From a virus (taxonomy: Duplodnaviria; Heunggongvirae; Uroviricota; Caudoviricetes): a stretch of 9,106 nt of DNA. The notes below the pieces were generated by a model, which had not been told where the DNA came from, did no database searches, and saw only the letters and a program-made list of their open reading frames with translations. The position numbers were made by a program, and so were the translations under genes. Of the stretch, positions 734-9,106 are shown one piece after another; positions within the stretch are counted from its first letter, which is position 1; the number at the start of each line of letters is the position of its first letter. The stretch lies in the IMG/VR virus record IMGVR_UViG_642979322_000006; one strand, written 5' to 3'.

Positions 734-1657
734 TCAGCTTTTCGCCAGAACGGTGACGGCCTTATCGAGTTTTTGCCATCCGCAATAGGTGATTGCCCTG
801 AACGCTGTAGCGTCATTCTGGAAAAGGCTAACCGCCCCTGATTCGGTTTTTATTACCGCCTCATCAGTTGGGGTTATAACCGTGGCTTCAACGTTAATAA
901 TCAGCTTTTGAGCGTCTATCAGCATCATGCGATCCGCCTGTTCGCTCACAATTACCGGTATTCTCAAAAGCTCTATCTGCCAGAACTCAGCATCAGTAAG
1001 CTGTAAAGCGTTTTCTACGGGCAAGATTAGCGACGACGTGGAAAGCGTGTTACCGTTCGCTATGTGCTTTTTGAAAAGCTCTATGAAGTTTTCGGCCTCA
1101 TCAGCACCATTAAGCACGCCCTCAGGGGATACGCCAGCCACCTCCTGATCACTGGAAAGAAATTTTTTATCTATTTCTTTCACCGATTCCGATGTGATCA
1201 AGTCTCTGATCGCTGAATTTGTACCAGGGGTGCTAAATTTGATTAGCTCGTTATTCAGCATCACAATAGCGCCAAGTTTGCACAGTTTTAGCGCGCTTTC
1301 GTTTACTTCTCCCTCTTTGACAGGGATTTCTTCGGCTTCTTTAAGCCATTTACTACCCTTGCCTGATATTGACTGCAATTTTGCGCCAAACGGAAGATTA
1401 AGCGCGCTGCTGATTAGCTTGCCTGGTACAGACTGCGAAAAAATATACTCGCCAAGCTCTCTTACTATCGGCTCTGCCACCAGCGACGGCATATTATCCG
1501 TAGTCATTCCGGCAACAATGGATTTTTCAAGAAATAACGATACTGCCGGATCATTTCTTTTCGTCATCTCTATAGCGTCAGCATGGCTAAATTTACACGA
1601 TGCCAGCACGCTGGCGGCGCGAACTGCTGGCACGCCTTTCATGTTTTTACAGATCAT
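734..1657 (-). CDS. HK97-fold major capsid protein homolog (Phage_capsid-like), 307 aa from the preferred start
   Basis: Long ORF (track 734..1666). AGGAGG at 1667-1672 is 9 nt from the ATG at 1657 and 0 nt from the ATG at 1666, so 1657 is preferred. C-terminal pattern LFQNDATAFRAITYCGW...AVTVL and mid-protein pattern ALKLCKLGAIVMLNNELIKF resemble conserved HK97-family capsid motifs by eye. Sits directly after terS. Confidence 0.6.
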   Translation of the reverse strand: MICKNMKGVPAVRAASVLASCKFSHADAIEMTKRNDPAVSLFLEKSIVAGMTTDNMPSLVAEPIVRELGEYIFSQSVPGKLISSALNLPFGAKLQSISGKGSKWLKEAEEIPVKEGEVNESALKLCKLGAIVMLNNELIKFSTPGTNSAIRDLITSESVKEIDKKFLSSDQEVAGVSPEGVLNGADEAENFIELFKKHIANGNTLSTSSLILPVENALQLTDAEFWQIELLRIPVIVSEQADRMMLIDAQKLIINVEATVITPTDEAVIKTESGAVSLFQNDATAFRAITYCGWQKLDKAVTVLAKS

Positions 1658-1808
1658 CTTCTTCATCCTCCTGGAAGCACGGGTTTAGTGTTTCGTGAAA
1701 ATATGGCATCAGAACAGCGGCGGCCTGTAACCGTATTTCGGTCGACTGCTGCTTGTCGTTCATGATTTCCGTGAGTACATCAATAGGGTCTGTGATGTAT
1801 TCGCTCAT
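1647..1808 (-). CDS. Small hypothetical protein (53 aa, acidic C-terminus), below the 60-aa track threshold
   Basis: Hand-translated: MSEYITDPIDVLTEIMNDKQQSTEIRLQAAAVLMPYFHETLNPCFQEDEEDDL. GAGG 8 nt upstream overlaps the terS stop; its own stop overlaps the start of the capsid-like gene. Could be spurious. Confidence 0.35.
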   Translation of the reverse strand: MSEYITDPIDVLTEIMNDKQQSTEIRLQAAAVLMPYFHETLNPCFQEDEEDDL

Positions 1809-1819
1809 AGTTCGCTACC

Positions 1820-2308
1820 TCAGTGTTTTAAGTCTGTTGGTGGCTTAGGGATGGGGAACCGATTTGAGTAGACACTAGCGGCATTGAGTTTTTTAACCTC
1901 TTTTTTCCCAATGCTGCCGATCTTGCGGTGGGTGAACTGGGCCAGCTTAAACGCGGCATCTAAAGCCAGTTTTGGATCTGTGTCCATGTTGTCAATCAGT
2001 ATCCTGCCCATTGCTTTGATGGGGTCGGGTAGGCCGTTATCCATCATCTCAATGGTGTTAATTGATGCCCGTTCCGGTGTAACTTTTTCGGTAACTTTCT
2101 TTGTAACTTTTTTCGGTTTTGTAACCTGAAAAGTTACATCAGAAGTTACAGCCTTAAGATACTTTTTCACCTCAGGATCGTTGGATAGCTGCCAGCCTTT
2201 AACCCTTGCGGTCTTTTCGCTGTATCCCGCATGTATAGCGGCTTCCGTGGGATTTGCGCCCCTTGATAACGCATCAGCAAACCGCTTTTTTTTGGTCGTT
2301 AATGCCAT
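1820..2308 (-). CDS. terS: Phage small terminase subunit (TerS, Terminase_2 / P27-like)
   Basis: N-terminal motif MALTTKKKRFADALSRGANPTEAAIHAGYSEKTARVKGWQLSNDPEVKKYL matches the HTH DNA-binding signature of small terminases. GAGG 8 nt upstream of ATG 2308. The track ORF extends to 2425 but that extension lacks an RBS and looks non-native. Confidence 0.8.
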   Translation of the reverse strand: MALTTKKKRFADALSRGANPTEAAIHAGYSEKTARVKGWQLSNDPEVKKYLKAVTSDVTFQVTKPKKVTKKVTEKVTPERASINTIEMMDNGLPDPIKAMGRILIDNMDTDPKLALDAAFKLAQFTHRKIGSIGKKEVKKLNAASVYSNRFPIPKPPTDLKH

Positions 2309-2437
2309 GCAAAAACCTCGTTTTGAGGGGGTGTAACTTTTCGTGTAACTTTTTTGAAAAGCAAAATTTTCTACGAATGAGACGGGGGGCGGTGTCCAGG
2401 GTGATCGACTTTCCGGCCGGAACACTCCCCCCCCATG

Positions 2438-3465: not shown

Positions 3466-5220
3466 TTATAAAAACGCGTCGCAATCATCAGTTGTAATTG
3501 CGTTGGTCTGCGTTACTCCCTTAACTCTCCGCGTAATATATTCATGTCCGTAAACTTTTGCCGCTGGCTTCATGGCCTTGCTGAACTCAGCCACGTTTAG
3601 CGGCTTGCTTCTTCCTGCGTATGCCATAAACGCCAGATAGACGCGGTAAAGGCTGTTTCTGGTCGTGTACTTCACGGAATCGCCACCGCCACCCATCATC
3701 AGGCCGCGTGCTTCCTCCAGAAAATTCAGGAACTGGCAAAACTCAATAACCGGATCTGTCTGTTGCTTTATCGCCAGTGCTTCATCACCATCGCGCTGTT
3801 CCAGGAGTAAAGCCCGTGCCTTTTCAGGGTCGGCAAAATTAGCCAGCAAGCGGCGGATAATTACGGGGATTTCTGCCGCTATCTTTTCCGGTAATTCCTT
3901 GTCTTTTTCGTCCTCCCTTACAATGTTGTCGAACCGGAAAATCACCCGACGGCGTGACACACCTCCGGCCCGCTCGGTGAATATCATCGGGTTGTTGTTG
4001 GTCGCCAGTACCACCGCCCTTATTACCGTCGTGAATCGCTTCTCATATTTCGGGTTAATTTCGACGGGGTCGCCGCCCGTGATTTTCTTGATGCCCGTTC
4101 CTTCGCCTGTATATTTCGGTTGGTCAGCCAGGACGATAAGACGACTCCCGACAACCTGCGCACGTCCACCAGCATCATCAAGCGATGTCATTTCAGCGCT
4201 TACCGTGTTCTGTTTCCCTGCCAGAAGGCTGGCTATGTGCGTGAATGTACTTTTACCGCTACCGCCGTCTCCGGTGGCCTCAATAAACATCTGCCAGTCG
4301 TACCGGTTCGCCATAATCATGTACAGCGCGGCACATATACGCATCATCTTGCGCGGGTCTTTTCCGGCTGCGTGATCAAGCCATTTGTGAAAGTTTGGCG
4401 CGTTGTCGCGAATGTTCTCCCCAGGTGCTGGTGGCGTGTACTCAATGCCGTTGTGCGTGGTGATCCAGTTCTCCGGCGTGTGCGGGGAAAATTCCCCCGT
4501 TTTCAGGTCAAGCGCACCATTGGCGAACGGCAGCAAATCGCCGGACGGCTCCCCCATTGGTTCGGCAATAACTTTTAACGCTTCAACGGCGTTATTGATC
4601 ACGCGTTTGCTGAAAGTGGCCCTGTGCTCTGAATAGATCGCCACCATTTCGCGGCTAAGTTCCATTGTGCTGACCGGACACCATAACCCGCAGCGCCATA
4701 CGTGAACGATTTCACTTTCAGGATGTACGCAAACGCCATCAAAGCGATCGGAAAGCAGCTGAGCGCGTTCACTGTCCGCCATCTGCGAAAGTTGCGCCTT
4801 TTGCTTTACCGGAAGCTCAACGACCAGACCTTCAGAAAGATTCTGGCGCTCACGGGCAAGATATTCGCGCCAGTTCTCCACCTTCTGACCGTGCATTCCT
4901 TCGGGGTAAAAATTTGCATCCTGTACACCTGCCGCCGCCAGCTTCTGACCAATCGCCTTTATCATTACTGGCGCAAGATATCCGGCCCTGAATATGCGTA
5001 CTGATTTTCGGCCTTCCGGCACAATTTGCAGCTTATCCAGTTCGGATAACTGCTGATCCCCAAGCCACACAGGAGGCTCATTATCTCTGGCTATACGCGC
5101 GTCATGTTCCTGCCACTGTTTTGCATGTGCCCACGCATCACTACCCGCGAAAATAATTACCTCTGTGTCTTTGTGTTTTATTCCGCGTGGTTGTTTTTTT
5201 AAGTTCGGTGCGCTTTTCAT
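3466..5220 (-). CDS. Replication primase/helicase, P4-alpha-like (primase domain plus SF3/D5-type NTPase)
   Basis: 584-aa ORF. Walker A GDGGSGKST (around plus 4240-4270) and Walker B-like RLIVLAD. GAGG 6 nt upstream of ATG 5220. Start overlaps the upstream gene's stop as ATGA. Confidence 0.9.
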   Translation of the reverse strand: MKSAPNLKKQPRGIKHKDTEVIIFAGSDAWAHAKQWQEHDARIARDNEPPVWLGDQQLSELDKLQIVPEGRKSVRIFRAGYLAPVMIKAIGQKLAAAGVQDANFYPEGMHGQKVENWREYLARERQNLSEGLVVELPVKQKAQLSQMADSERAQLLSDRFDGVCVHPESEIVHVWRCGLWCPVSTMELSREMVAIYSEHRATFSKRVINNAVEALKVIAEPMGEPSGDLLPFANGALDLKTGEFSPHTPENWITTHNGIEYTPPAPGENIRDNAPNFHKWLDHAAGKDPRKMMRICAALYMIMANRYDWQMFIEATGDGGSGKSTFTHIASLLAGKQNTVSAEMTSLDDAGGRAQVVGSRLIVLADQPKYTGEGTGIKKITGGDPVEINPKYEKRFTTVIRAVVLATNNNPMIFTERAGGVSRRRVIFRFDNIVREDEKDKELPEKIAAEIPVIIRRLLANFADPEKARALLLEQRDGDEALAIKQQTDPVIEFCQFLNFLEEARGLMMGGGGDSVKYTTRNSLYRVYLAFMAYAGRSKPLNVAEFSKAMKPAAKVYGHEYITRRVKGVTQTNAITTDDCDAFL

Positions 5221-5516
5221 TTCTTGCCTCTGAATCCGTTAATCATGTTTTTCATCTTCTGAATATTGGCGCGTGCTTTCTCCCTGCTGGTGGGCACGTT
5301 ACGCGGTACAGCCTGCACCAGAGAAAAATCACGGTCGAACTGATAAACAGGAATCACGCAATCATATTCGTAGCCTTCACGGCGGTAAGTTACGCGCCGT
5401 TCCTCCACGCCCTTAATCATTACCGTGCCGCCGTACTGGTCGCGGTAAATATCCCCGCGCATAAATTCAGGTTGAGCTTTGCCACTGGCAGTTAAGCCAG
5501 AATATTTAAGTTTCAT
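5217..5516 (-). CDS. Hypothetical protein (99 aa), translationally coupled to the primase
   Basis: ORF from track; ATG 5516 with GGAG about 9 nt upstream; stop TGA overlaps the primase ATG. Confidence 0.6.
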   Translation of the reverse strand: MKLKYSGLTASGKAQPEFMRGDIYRDQYGGTVMIKGVEERRVTYRREGYEYDCVIPVYQFDRDFSLVQAVPRNVPTSREKARANIQKMKNMINGFRGKK

Positions 5517-5521
5517 TATTT

Positions 5522-5782
5522 TTATTCTCCGATAGCGTGACCTGATAAGCCGTTAATCTTCTCTGATATGCTCTCTATTTTGCTGGTGGAAATATTCAGT
5601 AATTCAGAAATGGCAAAGGTTAATCTTGTCGTTGACTCGTCACGCTCGCAATTTGTCAGCGATTCAAACCAGACGTTAATAATCTCACTTACGGCATTGT
5701 TGTAAGATATTGCGCTTTGTGTGAGTTCATTCAATTCGCAAATTACGCGTTTGTTATTGTTCATAGCGTTTAAATCTCTCAT
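5522..5782 (-). CDS. Hypothetical acidic helical protein (about 86 aa)
   Basis: Track ORF 5522..5785 begins at TTG; first ATG is at 5782, another at 5764. Start uncertain; overlaps the 3' end of the upstream ORF. Confidence 0.45.
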   Translation of the reverse strand: MRDLNAMNNNKRVICELNELTQSAISYNNAVSEIINVWFESLTNCERDESTTRLTFAISELLNISTSKIESISEKINGLSGHAIGE

Positions 5783-5945
5783 CAATTAACCACAGCGCAA
5801 CACTTCCAGAAAGTTTTGCCAGAAGGCCAGCTAATGCGGATATATCGTCATCCGTAAGTTTGTCAGGGTATACCTCAAGAAGGCGGCAAATGATTTCAAC
5901 CTGCTGCGCTCTTTCCGCAATTTCGTTTAATGTAAACTCCTGCAT
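5754..5945 (-). CDS. Hypothetical acidic protein (63 aa)
   Basis: ORF from track; ATG 5945 with GAGGAG 7 nt upstream; 3 nt after the stop of the upstream ORF. Confidence 0.5.
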   Translation of the reverse strand: MQEFTLNEIAERAQQVEIICRLLEVYPDKLTDDDISALAGLLAKLSGSVALWLIDERFKRYEQ

Positions 5946-5948
5946 TAA

Positions 5949-6134
5949 TTACTCCTCATCCTGAATACATGTCACTGTGTGGATAATTACGCCGGATAAA
6001 CCGGCTTTAGCTGATTTGTTAATTACTGTGCTGATTGCAGCCTGGACGTTTTCGGCCTTCACGTTCTGCGTGATGCCAACGGTATAGCCGCGCTTGTTAA
6101 CAGCACGGGAAAAAACGCGGAAGGTTTTAAGCAC
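5949..6134 (-). CDS. Hypothetical protein (61 aa), GTG start
   Basis: ORF from track; start codon is GTG (plus 6132-6134 CAC), no internal Met. Overlaps the upstream ORF by 8 nt. Coding status uncertain. Confidence 0.4.
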   Translation of the reverse strand: MLKTFRVFSRAVNKRGYTVGITQNVKAENVQAAISTVINKSAKAGLSGVIIHTVTCIQDEE

Positions 6135-6330
6135 GGCACACCCCCTGACGAATACGGGCCGCGAATACCATCACGCAGCCAACTGGGGATTGCTGGCGTG
6201 CTTCCTGTTCGCTGGTGGCCTCGATGGTAATCACGCGCGGCTGTGCCGTGCTCAGGGCGATAAAACGCCAGATGTATTTATTCAGGTTGTGCGAGTCCCG
6301 CCCTTGCGGGTGTGTGGTATGATTTAACAT
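6127..6330 (-). CDS. Hypothetical protein (67 aa), first gene of the replication-side operon
   Basis: Internal ATG at 6330 of the track's 219-aa frame, with GAGGT 5 nt upstream. The longer frame is rejected because it would cross the divergent control region and the plus-strand RHH gene. Confidence 0.4.
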   Translation of the reverse strand: MLNHTTHPQGRDSHNLNKYIWRFIALSTAQPRVITIEATSEQEARQQSPVGCVMVFAARIRQGVCRA

Positions 6331-6430
6331 AGCTACCTCGATACTGTTGCTATCGTTGGTTGTTAGACGCCCTGCGAGTGTTCCACCACTGCGGGGCTTC
6401 GCTGTATTTAATGGTTGCGTATCTTCAATA

Positions 6431-6475
6431 TGGTACGTACCATTGGGTTTCAGTTTATAATGGTGGTACGTACCA
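6431..6475. promoter_or_regulatory. Twin 12-bp perfect palindromes TGGTACGTACCA (putative operators) flanking a TATAAT -10
   Basis: Palindromes at 6431-6442 (extends to a 14-bp palindrome at 6430-6443) and 6464-6475, centres 33 bp apart. TATAAT at 6456-6461. The second palindrome abuts the ATG at 6476. Lies in the divergent region between the RHH-like gene and the replication operon. Confidence 0.55.
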
Positions 6476-6658
6476 ATGCAAGAAAAAAATGAGAAACCAA
6501 AATTTGATCGCTCTGGCAGCACAAAGAAAAACATCCGCTTCGAAGACACATTGTTGCAACAAATTAACGAAGTTGCTGGGCCTGGTAATTTCAGTTCATG
6601 GGTTAAAAATGCCTGTCGTGACAAGCTACGCAAAGAAGGCATAGAACCAAAAGGCTGA
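6476..6658 (+). CDS. Small ribbon-helix-helix-like DNA-binding protein (60 aa), possibly YlcI/DUF3950-like
   Basis: ATG 6476 with GGTGG 9 nt upstream. Motif NIRFEDTLLQQINEVAGPGNFSSWVKNACRDKL fits a strand-helix-helix pattern and resembles small prophage regulators from memory. The only convincing plus-strand gene in the window. Confidence 0.55.
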   Translation: MQEKNEKPKFDRSGSTKKNIRFEDTLLQQINEVAGPGNFSSWVKNACRDKLRKEGIEPKG

Positions 6659-6749
6659 TAGTCCACCAGCAAGCCAGCACACTGAGCACATTGCCCACCA
6701 GACAGCAAATCGCTATGATGTTCGGGCTTATGTTTAGTGTTTTCCCATT

Positions 6750-6777
6750 GGCGACCGCCACAGGTCGCCTTTGTTTT
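6750..6777 (+). terminator. Rho-independent terminator (plus strand)
   Basis: 7-bp GC-rich stem GGCGACC / GGTCGCC with 6-nt loop, followed by TTTGTTTT; about 95 bp downstream of the RHH gene stop, in the convergent gap before alpA. Confidence 0.55.
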
Positions 6778-6796
6778 ATGTGTCATATGCTCCCCT

Positions 6797-7021
6797 TTAC
6801 ACTGCCTTACCTGAATTAATGCGATCCCGGCTTTTAACCCATTCCATAACCTCGGACAGCAGCCACCCTACAGAACGACCGCCCAGATTAAGACGTGACG
6901 GAAAGCGCCCTTTTTTCTCCAGTTCGTAGCGTGTAGTGCGGCACACTCCTGTTAACTTACGGCATTCATCCTCACGGATTACGCGATCTGATAGTGATTG
7001 AAATTGTGTATTTTGATTCAT
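6797..7021 (-). CDS. alpA: AlpA-family prophage transcriptional regulator (HTH, excisionase-like)
   Basis: 74-aa ORF. Motif RKLTGVCRTTRYELEKKGRFPSRLNLGGRSVGWLLSEVMEWVKSR matches the AlpA (Phage_AlpA) signature. Position downstream of int is typical. Confidence 0.88.
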   Translation of the reverse strand: MNQNTQFQSLSDRVIREDECRKLTGVCRTTRYELEKKGRFPSRLNLGGRSVGWLLSEVMEWVKSRDRINSGKAV

Positions 7022-7083: not shown

Positions 7084-7116
7084 GTGTGATATCACACTAC
7101 CAGCACGTGATATCAC
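7084..7116. promoter_or_regulatory. Twin palindromes GTGATATCAC (putative operator pair) upstream of alpA
   Basis: 14-bp perfect palindrome GTGTGATATCACAC at 7084-7097 and 10-bp palindrome GTGATATCAC at 7107-7116, centres 21 bp apart. The second overlaps the stop codon of the 257-aa ORF. Confidence 0.45.
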
Positions 7117-7886
7117 TTTTTACGTTTTTGTTGAGATTCACGCCCCAAATACTTTTGCCATGTCTGCCAATGTGTTTTTGGAAATTCTATCCCTCTGGAT
7201 GCAGCTATAGAATCAATTAAATCTGCTATTTTAGGTAATGATTCCGTGTCCAGGTCTACATCACCCATTTCTGGAATAAGTTTAATTAAAGAGTAAATAA
7301 CCTCATTCCTTTTTGACGATGCTTTTGGGCTATCTTCTGTTATCTTCGGGAAGTCTCCCGTATTTTTTATATTATCTAAATCACTAGCCATCACACACAA
7401 ATAGTTAACATCAAATTCATAACCACCCTTACAAAAAACATACATGAGATTATCATCACCATACTTATTCGTAAGATGAGAACATTTTATATATTGTCTC
7501 ATGCTAAATTCGACATCAGCAAAAACATATGCCGGAGTATAATAAAACCCTGATAAGCTGCTAACATAATAACATTTGATAGAATTCCCTACAGGACCAA
7601 TAATGGCACTATCTAAAAATTCAGTGTCACCAGTTAAACCAACTGTAAAATTACTTCCAAAAACAGCAGATTCATCATTGAAAGGATATTTTATTAATTC
7701 TTCCTCATTACAACCATTGATAAAATGACATAATGAAAAATTGAATTTTTTAGCATCAATTTTTGGTATATATACAGAAATATTAAGAGCACCTATATAT
7801 GCGTAATGATAAAGATCTTTTATTGCACAGCCTAACTTTTCTGCCGCTTCAGGTAACGGATAATAGAGTCTTTTAGGTAATTTCAT
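7113..7886 (-). CDS. Orphan hypothetical protein (257 aa), AT-rich cargo gene between int and alpA
   Basis: ORF from track. ATG 7886 overlaps the int stop as ATGA; AAGGTGG 4 nt upstream. Visibly lower GC than flanking genes. Rich in Y/F/N/K/C, acidic helical C-terminal region, no motif I can assign. Confidence 0.75.
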   Translation of the reverse strand: MKLPKRLYYPLPEAAEKLGCAIKDLYHYAYIGALNISVYIPKIDAKKFNFSLCHFINGCNEEELIKYPFNDESAVFGSNFTVGLTGDTEFLDSAIIGPVGNSIKCYYVSSLSGFYYTPAYVFADVEFSMRQYIKCSHLTNKYGDDNLMYVFCKGGYEFDVNYLCVMASDLDNIKNTGDFPKITEDSPKASSKRNEVIYSLIKLIPEMGDVDLDTESLPKIADLIDSIAASRGIEFPKTHWQTWQKYLGRESQQKRKK

Positions 7887-9106
7887 TTGGCCACCTTCAG
7901 CATAACAATATTTTCATGATTTCCAGCCAGCACATCGAGACGCTCAACCCATAGATTAAGAGCGTCACGTTTTGCATCAAGATAACGGGAGTGATTATAG
8001 ACTCGTTGCATTCCTGGCAACTGGTGCGCGGTAAGCTGCTCCACAACGTGCGGTTCCACGCCTAAATCGTTCAGCATCGTTGTAAACGTGTGCCGGATGT
8101 CGTGCAACGTCCAGGGGGCTTGATTAATGCGTCTGTGTGCCGTTCTTCCGTACTCTGATACGGATGATTGCCCTTTCAGTTCTCCGAGCAATAATCCCGT
8201 GTGCCTGTTCTGCTCCACCAGCTTCATGACAAACGGCAAGATCGCTTCCGGTATTGGCCTGAATATTGCTACCTTCGTTTTGCTGTGTTCTTTCGGCACG
8301 GTCCAGAGCATTTCTTTAAAATCCCATTCCTGGACCTCAGAGCGTCTTAGCTCAGTGGTACGACATCCGAAGACAATCAGGAGGCGAATCAGGGCGCTGT
8401 AGTACGGTGGGTAAATTTTTTCATCAAGGGCGCGTAGTAATTCCCCAAGCTCCTTGTTTGTTAGTACGCGCTCGCTTATTTCTGCTTTTTTCCCAACATC
8501 ACCGACAACCATATCATCAAGAACGTTGCTGATTGCGTATCGTCGTTTTCGGCAGTACTTAAGCGCCTGTTTGCATACCTGTAGCAAAAATCCGGCTGAT
8601 ACCGGATTACGCTTAGCAAGCTGGTCAAAACAGGCCAGCCAGTGGCGTAGCTCGCATTTTTCCAGTGGCATAGCGCCAATCTGGCTAATTATGTGTTTAT
8701 TGATCCGGCTTTTCAGTGATTCGTAGTCAGTGCGCTTTTCCTTTGCGTACGATTCAAGCCAGTAAGTGAGCGCTTCCTTAACCGTCACGGGGGCTAACGC
8801 GTCCTGTACAGCATGATTAAGTTCATAGCGCGGATTTTTCCCCTCAGCCAGCCAGGCGCGACACTGTGCCGCTTTTTCCCTGGCAGCTTTCAGGCTCAGA
8901 TCGGGATAATTGCCCAGCCTCAGACGTTCCGGTGATATCTGCCTACCAGTTCCGGCCCTGTAAGTGAAATACCAGGTTAACAGGCCATTGGTTGAATGCC
9001 TTACGCTAAGGTTGCCACCATCATTAAAAAAGGTGTTTTTTGTGGTTGGTGATCCGCTTAATTTTCGTAAAAGAGTGTCGCTAAGTCTATGAATTGCCCT
9101 GCTCAT
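7883..9106 (-). CDS. int: Tyrosine site-specific integrase (P4-type)
   Basis: 407-aa ORF. N-terminal region typical of P4-like integrases (FNDGGNLSVRHSTNGLLTWYFTYR...LGNYPDLSLKAAREKA). C-terminal catalytic region with HDIRHTF and RVYNHSRYLD (catalytic Tyr). ATG is at 9104-9106, so upstream signals are outside the window and the true start could lie beyond the edge. Confidence 0.92.
   Translation of the reverse strand: MSRAIHRLSDTLLRKLSGSPTTKNTFFNDGGNLSVRHSTNGLLTWYFTYRAGTGRQISPERLRLGNYPDLSLKAAREKAAQCRAWLAEGKNPRYELNHAVQDALAPVTVKEALTYWLESYAKEKRTDYESLKSRINKHIISQIGAMPLEKCELRHWLACFDQLAKRNPVSAGFLLQVCKQALKYCRKRRYAISNVLDDMVVGDVGKKAEISERVLTNKELGELLRALDEKIYPPYYSALIRLLIVFGCRTTELRRSEVQEWDFKEMLWTVPKEHSKTKVAIFRPIPEAILPFVMKLVEQNRHTGLLLGELKGQSSVSEYGRTAHRRINQAPWTLHDIRHTFTTMLNDLGVEPHVVEQLTAHQLPGMQRVYNHSRYLDAKRDALNLWVERLDVLAGNHENIVMLKVAK

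Follow-up and report, generated by a model that had tools for sequence, protein, structure and literature searches.

The DNA analyzed here, hereafter the window, is a 9,106-nucleotide stretch recorded in IMG/VR as IMGVR_UViG_642979322_000006. Its sequence matches with 100% identity a 9-kb island that Escherichia coli O157:H7 genomes carry between clpS and cspD, and, by gene content and gene order, the window is a phage-inducible chromosomal island (PICI) of the EcCICFT073 type. Within it, two copies of a short palindrome are probably operators of a 60-amino-acid ribbon-helix-helix (RHH) repressor that would control both its own gene and a divergent operon running from an icd-like gene to a primase gene. 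An earlier note on this DNA had taken the element for a satellite and had proposed a repressor-type switch with the small RHH-like protein as the candidate. The island's identity bears out the first point, and a conserved footprint, co-variation and cassette exchange support the second. The observations comprise sequence anatomy, conservation, co-variation, cassette exchange and a fold prediction.

Twin palindromes at the start of an opposite-strand gene

The palindrome TGGTACGTACCA is present as two exact copies, at 6431-6442 (candidate operator O1) and 6464-6475 (candidate operator O2), which are 33 bp apart center to center, as the earlier note had it. No further copy occurs in the 9,106-bp window when up to two mismatches are allowed. 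O1 extends to a 14-bp palindrome, ATGGTACGTACCAT, at 6430-6443, and the two copies are mutually complementary, forming an inverted repeat with a plus-strand TATAAT (6456-6461) between them. The second copy does touch a start codon: O2 ends at 6475 and abuts the ATG (6476-6478) of a plus-strand open reading frame (ORF) of 60 amino acids at 6476-6658. An earlier start for this gene is excluded because an in-frame TAA lies at 6458-6460. With the same tolerance of two mismatches, the chance expectation for TGGTACGTACCA is 0.22 matches, with two or more matches in 4 of 200 shuffles. Among 1000 dinucleotide shuffles of the 73-bp variable stretch of the intergenic region, one reached an exact repeat of 12 nucleotides.

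All other genes of the window are on the minus strand. In RefSeq, the annotation of the identical O157:H7 island likewise shows the 60-amino-acid ORF as the sole plus-strand gene, in agreement with the earlier note, and labels the identical protein as a member of the YlcI/YnfO family. In hidden Markov model (HMM) searches the protein passes the curated thresholds of both Pfam DUF3950 (PF13132; 33.1 bits, cut-off 25) and NCBIfam NF041551 (YlcI_YnfO_N; 31.1 bits, cut-off 30). A profile search found 1038 relatives, and among the 120 matches listed all named organisms are Enterobacterales. The ORF is under strong purifying selection (dN/dS 0.06 versus the closest allele), and comparisons between genera show saturation at synonymous sites (pS 0.8-0.97) with a pN of ∼0.2. 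The predicted structure has an RHH-like topology, not that of a helix-turn-helix (HTH) protein (predicted local distance difference test score, pLDDT, of 75), which suggests that the protein is an RHH DNA-binding protein. Proteins of this class (Arc/MetJ/CopG) begin with a beta-strand that precedes two helices, are obligate dimers whose paired strands enter the DNA major groove, and bind short inverted or tandem operator repeats at their own promoter or one nearby. The literature searched yielded no functional study of the DUF3950 or YlcI/YnfO family.

Many RHH proteins of such size are antitoxins with palindromic operators, and the 60-amino-acid protein could be the antitoxin of a toxin-antitoxin pair that autoregulates through the palindromes. 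We give this reading next to no credence. No co-transcribed partner ORF is annotated, and the gene is followed by a 90-nucleotide spacer and then by an intrinsic terminator-like hairpin at 6750-6769 (plus strand; 7 pairs, 6 of them G-C; tail TTTGTTTTAT) that would end the RHH transcript ahead of alpA. This hairpin also runs across the sole ORF further downstream (6715-6819), and Pfam and NCBIfam searches gave no toxin-antitoxin family match above cut-off. The toxin-antitoxin reading was rejected because an adjacent partner gene was not found.

The footprint is conserved among distant homologues

The comparison set consists of 20 distinct regions from at least four genera, drawn from E. coli, Pantoea, Xenorhabdus, a metagenome-assembled genome (MAG) and IMG/VR contigs; a pattern scan of IMG/VR brought the set to this size, and in each region a full-length homologue follows the footprint. 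Most contigs of sufficient length also match int, alpA, DUF4222 or primase, with the relative order kept. Homologues that are 70-75% identical to the window protein occur in Pantoea stewartii, four Xenorhabdus species and an Enterobacteriaceae MAG, and all of them carry GGTACGTACC or a one-nucleotide variant of it at −44 to −35 and at −11 to −2 from the ATG. In Xenorhabdus, O2 is present only as the one-nucleotide variants GGTACATACC and GGTACACACC. The spacing of the palindromes is 33-34 bp in 17 of the 20 relatives and 28 bp in the other three, and the 21-bp spacer between them diverges freely while both palindromes hold their positions.

The putative operator motif follows the protein allele

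The same slot in E. coli is occupied by many other protein alleles, each with its own motif repeated two or three times; we counted nine such alleles. Their motifs are TGTGCGCACA, ATCGCAC, GAAACACAC, GTGTTRAACAC, GTCAGCCAC, (A/C)ATACAC within GGTGTATTTCACC, and GGTAATTACC, with EcCICFT073 carrying GGTGTGGCCCAC twice plus a degenerate third copy. A matrix of eight motif classes by 17 loci is perfectly block-diagonal with the protein allele, and EcCICFT073 represents a ninth class. In every locus, repeated motifs specific to the allele are located at the predicted promoters.

These alleles bear on whether the palindromes might act as RNA, with a 12-bp stem and 21-nucleotide loop that either controls translation of the 60-amino-acid gene or serves as a terminator. 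A stem would be consistent with the mutual complementarity of the copies and with the second copy abutting the AUG. We consider such a role highly improbable, given that the corresponding motifs in loci L004 and L007 are direct, non-palindromic repeats that cannot pair, and that the Xenorhabdus O2 variants break complementarity with no compensating change in O1. The RNA-stem reading was rejected on these two grounds.

Exchange of the region between islands separates the RHH gene from its neighbors. When E. coli strain 9000 (L004) is compared with the window by blastn, homology ends at 6397 and restarts at 6658, in the stop codon of the RHH gene. From 6658 through alpA, a 257-amino-acid gene and int the two are 98.8% identical, and the icd side is homologous as well, yet 6398-6657 is replaced by another RHH allele with its own motif. 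Conversely, strain APEC E18006 (L002) carries the window's cassette, yet its alpA, int and primase are different. Thus, the RHH gene is the only element that the motif accompanies, and the swappable cassette (6398-6657) comprises the operators, the promoters and the RHH gene. A rival reading has another factor binding the palindromes, the 60-amino-acid protein being unrelated to them: AlpA is a DNA-binding activator encoded only 320 bp away, and a host protein, the Icd-like protein or the primase (at iterons) are further candidates. Both swaps, together with the block-diagonal matrix, make this very unlikely, and the palindromes as AlpA, primase or Icd sites were rejected on the cassette-swap evidence. 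They are instead best assigned, with fair probability, to the RHH protein.

Individual alleles provide additional detail. In E. coli ETEC1747 (L016, 1937-2110) the slot holds an unannotated 57-amino-acid RHH ORF (MSTPLEKRSPPYQMRLPEEF...GIVPKG), with twin GGTAATTACC palindromes 30 bp apart, the second of which abuts the ATG. Across the intergenic regions of L003-L007, L014, L015, L017 and L019, operators of the "long" alleles are mostly GGTG-N5-CACC with an allele-specific center. The pattern G(G/T)T(A/G)-N2-(T/C)A(C/A)C describes the operators of L003, of L016 and of the window type. The window and L003 proteins have the strand sequence KKNIRF in common and have different operators; thus, the strand alone does not set specificity. 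CFT073 (L019, 10243-11053) has an Icd-like gene, a YlcI/YnfO gene and another small ORF on the opposite strand, and the RefSeq locus tags there (C_RS30120 for the YlcI/YnfO gene, which is high-numbered, C_RS30125 and C_RS30800) are out of series with those of the neighbors.

A predicted leftward promoter between the palindromes

To locate promoters, the 20 relatives were examined with a position weight matrix (PWM) scan and by positional profiling, on both strands and up to 100 bp upstream of the ATG. The pattern TAnnnT is found in at least 50% of relatives at exactly one hexamer position, 6457-6452 on the minus strand, where all 20 carry it in the form of eight different hexamers (TAAACT, TAGGCT, TAGGGT, TATGTT, TAATCT, TATATT, TAGGAT and TAGACT); columns 6452, 6456 and 6457 are invariant in the alignment. 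In the window, this −10 element is TAAACT (6452-6457, minus strand) and belongs to a predicted leftward promoter, P_left, pointing towards icd and the primase gene. The predicted −35 element, TTGCAT (6476-6481, minus strand), lies at a fixed distance of 18 nucleotides in all relatives, and this spacer contains O2. TTGCAT is the reverse complement of ATG-CAA, the invariant Met-Gln codons 1 and 2 of the RHH gene. All other alleles have a stronger TTGAC[AG]-17-TAnnnT; copies of the motif lie within its spacer and immediately downstream of it. For ETEC1747 the scan tool independently called TTGACA-17-TACTAT, whose perfect −35 element overlaps the RHH start codon.

The best candidate for the RHH gene's own promoter spans 6415-6443 on the plus strand (TTGCGT at 6415-6420, a 17-nucleotide spacer and TACCAT at 6438-6443; PWM score 7.7), and its −10 element is the right half of O1. 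TTGCnn-17-TACCAT recurs in 14 of the 20 relatives; the remaining six have TATA(T/G)T abutting O1. The earlier note had instead singled out the consensus TATAAT bracketed by the palindromes. This hexamer is indeed there, but it has a poor −35 element (GTACGT) and occurs in only 3 of the 20 relatives, and its TA is merely the complement of the conserved minus-strand −10. As a conserved core promoter it was rejected, and it may provide the RHH gene with a second start specific to this allele.

A model for control of the replication operon

From these observations we infer binding, repression and release of repression as follows. Dimers of the RHH protein would bind the two GGTACGTACC palindromes. 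O2 would fill the spacer of P_left, a sigma-70 promoter with a predicted transcription start site near 6445, and O1 would cover approximately +3 to +15 of the leftward transcript, such that operator occupancy would shut off the icd-DUF4222-primase (replication) operon. The same sites could mediate autoregulation, as O1 overlaps the TACCAT −10 and O2 stands directly before the AUG, an arrangement that would serve with either candidate for the gene's own promoter. The two promoters interdigitate, and therefore RNA polymerase probably uses one at a time. As in lambdoid immunity regions, 6398-6657 would act as an exchangeable specificity cassette.

How repression would be released is more speculative. 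In EcCICFT073, overexpression of AlpA alone results in excision and uncontrolled, primase-dependent replication, and helper phages induce alpA (PMC6092414). Because AlpA alone induces replication, we favor a route in which AlpA-driven transcription from upstream reads leftward across the cassette. Read-through is the simplest induction route because alpA lies upstream of the icd-primase operon and is co-oriented with it, and the hairpin at 6750-6769 has a T-tail on the plus strand only. Transcription of this kind would not need P_left, would be antisense to the RHH gene and might also dislodge the repressor.

Several points weigh against a repressor of this kind. The ability of AlpA alone to trigger EcCICFT073 replication implies that the 60-amino-acid protein does not act as a dominant, Stl-type master repressor. 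In lambda-like phages, family members adjoin cos and lack the operator pair; repression is therefore not necessarily the role of every family member. In the window, P_left matches the consensus only weakly (PWM score 6.8-7.1), and the RHH gene's own promoter is ambiguous. The RHH gene also lacks a Shine-Dalgarno (SD) sequence and has an A-rich coding start. Support for the fold is modest at the pLDDT obtained, a Foldseek search of the model against the PDB returned nothing significant, and a PDB sequence search with the family profile gave Arc as the best match at an E value of only 0.95.

The sufficiency of AlpA, the weak P_left and the non-regulatory context of the phage homologues near cos would also suit a protein that binds the palindromes but only regulates itself, or has an accessory role (for example, on helper-phage DNA), with icd through primase being transcribed solely from the alpA promoter. 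We regard this as rather unlikely. Between the operators, no promoter element other than the minus-strand −10 is conserved in position, and this one is kept in every relative. The leftward promoters of the other alleles are close to consensus and have operators both in their spacers and at their start sites.

A candidate antisense RNA at the icd start

The earlier note placed the beginning of the divergent operon at 6330, and this start is well founded: the Icd-like ATG at 6330 is preceded by the SD sequence GAGGT (6339-6335), and minus-strand ORFs continue contiguously to a D5/P4-type primase gene. The resulting 204-nucleotide gene is called alike in L002-L005 and CFT073. In NZ_CP089270 (L001, 11028-11435, corresponding to window 6127-6534) PGAP calls a 136-amino-acid Icd-like protein that starts at 6534 and overlaps the RHH gene and both operators. 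We rejected this start, as 6330 has an SD sequence and matches the 204-nucleotide calls in five records, and the longer call is probably a start-site misannotation.

The ∼70 nucleotides upstream of icd (6331-6400) are conserved in approximately 1300 of 5426 complete E. coli genomes irrespective of the cassette, and contain two hairpins with compensatory changes. Across both hairpins, 98.6% of pair cells are standard on the plus strand (many of them G·U), compared to 87.1% on the minus strand. HP1 (6366-6400, plus strand), which is indicated by covariation and has a T-rich tail, is a candidate plus-strand terminator; 98.1% of its cells pair on the plus strand, with many G·U pairs, versus 82.6% on the minus strand. 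With this difference in pairing, HP1 is disfavored as a leader structure of the leftward mRNA. The scan tool called HP1 of L016 terminator-like. HP2 (6339-6355, plus strand; CGATA-loop-TATCG) adjoins the icd SD sequence; in it, E. coli and the other genera differ by a double change from A-U to U-A.

An extended −10 element, TGGTATGAT, lies in icd codons 3-5 (6315-6323, plus strand), at a suitable distance upstream, and is a candidate promoter for an antisense RNA. All loci of four genera retain the form TGnTAnnnT, for which coding constraint is an alternative explanation. The corresponding 81-nucleotide RNA has a predicted folding energy of −29.5 kcal/mol (z −3.5). Rfam searches of 6290-6480 (E≤10) and of the whole window (E≤1) found no C4, isrK, sar or other family. 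Taken together, these features suggest a candidate cis-antisense RNA of ∼75 nucleotides (∼6330-6408, plus strand) that would cover the icd start codon, its SD sequence and HP2 and end at HP1. Such an RNA may add a second layer of control.

Organization of the island

The icd-like gene (6127-6330, minus strand; NCBIfam NF033153, 3e-19) is the first gene of the leftward operon, and the rest (3466-6134, minus strand) consists of contiguous or overlapping small ORFs followed by genes for a DUF4222 protein (5217-5516) and a D5/P4-type primase (3466-5220). On the other side of the cassette are alpA (6797-7021, minus strand; Pfam Phage_AlpA, 1.9e-16), the gene for the 257-amino-acid protein (7113-7886, minus strand) and the tyrosine integrase gene int (7883-9106, minus strand). 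The 257-amino-acid protein has no Pfam or NCBIfam match; it is identical in strain 9000, and sister islands have BRO-N, antA/antB or DUF6387 genes in its place. The window also encodes a small terminase subunit (terS) and a capsid protein. In the region 734-2425 (minus strand), a major-capsid-like gene (310 amino acids) and that for the small terminase are the only morphogenesis genes of the 9-kb island.

Gram-negative PICIs are recognized by int, alpA and primase genes in this order, mostly co-oriented, in an island of 9-15 kb, and the window has this organization. The prototype EcCICFT073 has the same gene order, encodes a near-identical Icd-like protein and shares the module described here. 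The order int, alpA, RHH gene (on the opposite strand), icd, DUF4222 and primase recurs among the relatives.

The region between the RHH stop codon and alpA has features of its own (6658-6775). A segment of ∼50 bp right after the stop codon is kept across cassettes in L007, CFT073 and strain F11 and contains a direct repeat of CCACCAG (6658-6674 and 6690-6706). This segment is followed by a plus-strand promoter-like sequence, TTGCCC-17-TATGAT (6691-6719), and then by the terminator at 6750-6769. These features could be a cassette boundary, a protein-binding site or a short RNA antisense to alpA read-through.

Comparison with known immunity systems

In the immI region of phage P22, the promoters Pant and Pmnt diverge and overlap, and operators lie on them. 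The components of immI include the RHH repressors Mnt and Arc and the sar antisense RNA (PMC2629481). The window module resembles this region in having a small, predicted RHH repressor gene divergent from the operon it would control and short symmetric operators that, judged from their positions, lie on overlapping promoters. If the candidate small RNA is real, a further likeness is that one gene of the controlled operon has its ribosome-binding site covered by a cis-antisense RNA. Unlike in P22, there is one RHH gene instead of two, the YlcI/YnfO protein is only marginally similar to Arc, and the element is a satellite and not a phage. The P22 region controls the antirepressor gene ant, whereas the operon here starts with the icd-like gene and ends with primase; ant/BRO genes occur elsewhere, in some sister islands only.

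Phage P1 immI (c4 antisense RNA, icd, ant) provides a second comparison, as here too an Icd-like ORF is first in its operon and its translation start is the apparent target of an RNA. However, Rfam detects no C4 or isrK RNA of the kind known from P1 immI and the P4 CI RNA, and no ant gene lies downstream. In addition, the candidate RNA of the window would come from the opposite strand, as a true cis-antisense RNA, and the module also includes a predicted protein repressor. Lacking both ant and a C4 RNA, it belongs to neither the P22 immI nor the P1 immI class.

Like Stl of Staphylococcus aureus pathogenicity islands (SaPIs) and Rpr of Gram-positive PICIs, the putative repressor is encoded divergently from the replication operon, between the int and rep sides, and its alleles are diverse; the Gram-positive layout used for this comparison is that described in PMC6092414. 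Stl proteins differ in being larger HTH proteins that are inactivated by helper-phage proteins, whereas an RHH protein is predicted here. The element also differs in encoding the activator AlpA, which alone can induce the prototype. As in the lambdoid immunity regions imm434 and imm21, a repressor gene and its cognate operators appear to be exchanged as one cassette. The lambdoid systems employ an HTH CI/Cro pair with tripartite OL/OR, in contrast to a predicted 60-amino-acid RHH protein with two operators and no evidence for SOS cleavage.

YlcI (DLP12) and YnfO (Qin) of E. coli K-12 and a lambda homologue belong to the same HMM family as the window protein, and K-12 YlcI shares the RNIRFP strand and GNFSAWV...ACR helix motifs. 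The phage-type members examined (L020, 8252-8834, and L021, 3516-3716; DLP12 ylcI, lambda and HK97-like) differ from the window gene in lying between lysis genes and the small terminase gene, adjoining cos, and in having neither twin operators nor a divergent replication operon. A search of the phage collection at the DNA level found nothing, and a protein search found only distant members next to cos in lambda-like and HK97-like phages. Given these cos-adjacent members, helper-type phages encode homologues of the satellite's putative repressor.

Implications

The literature searched describes no repressor of Gram-negative PICIs, and yielded no functional study of an EcCICFT073 repressor, of RHH proteins in phage satellites or of an Icd-like antisense RNA. 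Later surveys call PICI genes unidirectional (PMC10111431). A broader and distinctly tentative proposal, which we hold as a possibility short of an even chance, is that Gram-negative PICIs including EcCICFT073 are kept quiescent by a two-layer module, in which an allele-specific RHH repressor, with its own operators at the promoter of the replication operon, would act together with a conserved ∼75-nucleotide antisense RNA on the icd ribosome-binding site. The cassettes would then define heteroimmune groups, and homologues from helper phages may cross-talk with the module, through mixed dimers or cross-binding, in induction or interference.

At the very head of the replication operon, EcCICFT073 and more than 1000 E. 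coli genomes have a small gene on the opposite strand together with matching operators. Should the protein prove to be a repressor, the DUF3950/YlcI family would gain a function and the silence of the replication operon when AlpA is absent would be explained. Specificity (immunity) groups among satellites would be predicted as well, and the alleles would supply orthogonal pairs of small repressors and operators. The finding thus bears on an explicitly open point in PICI regulation and gives a DUF family a testable role.
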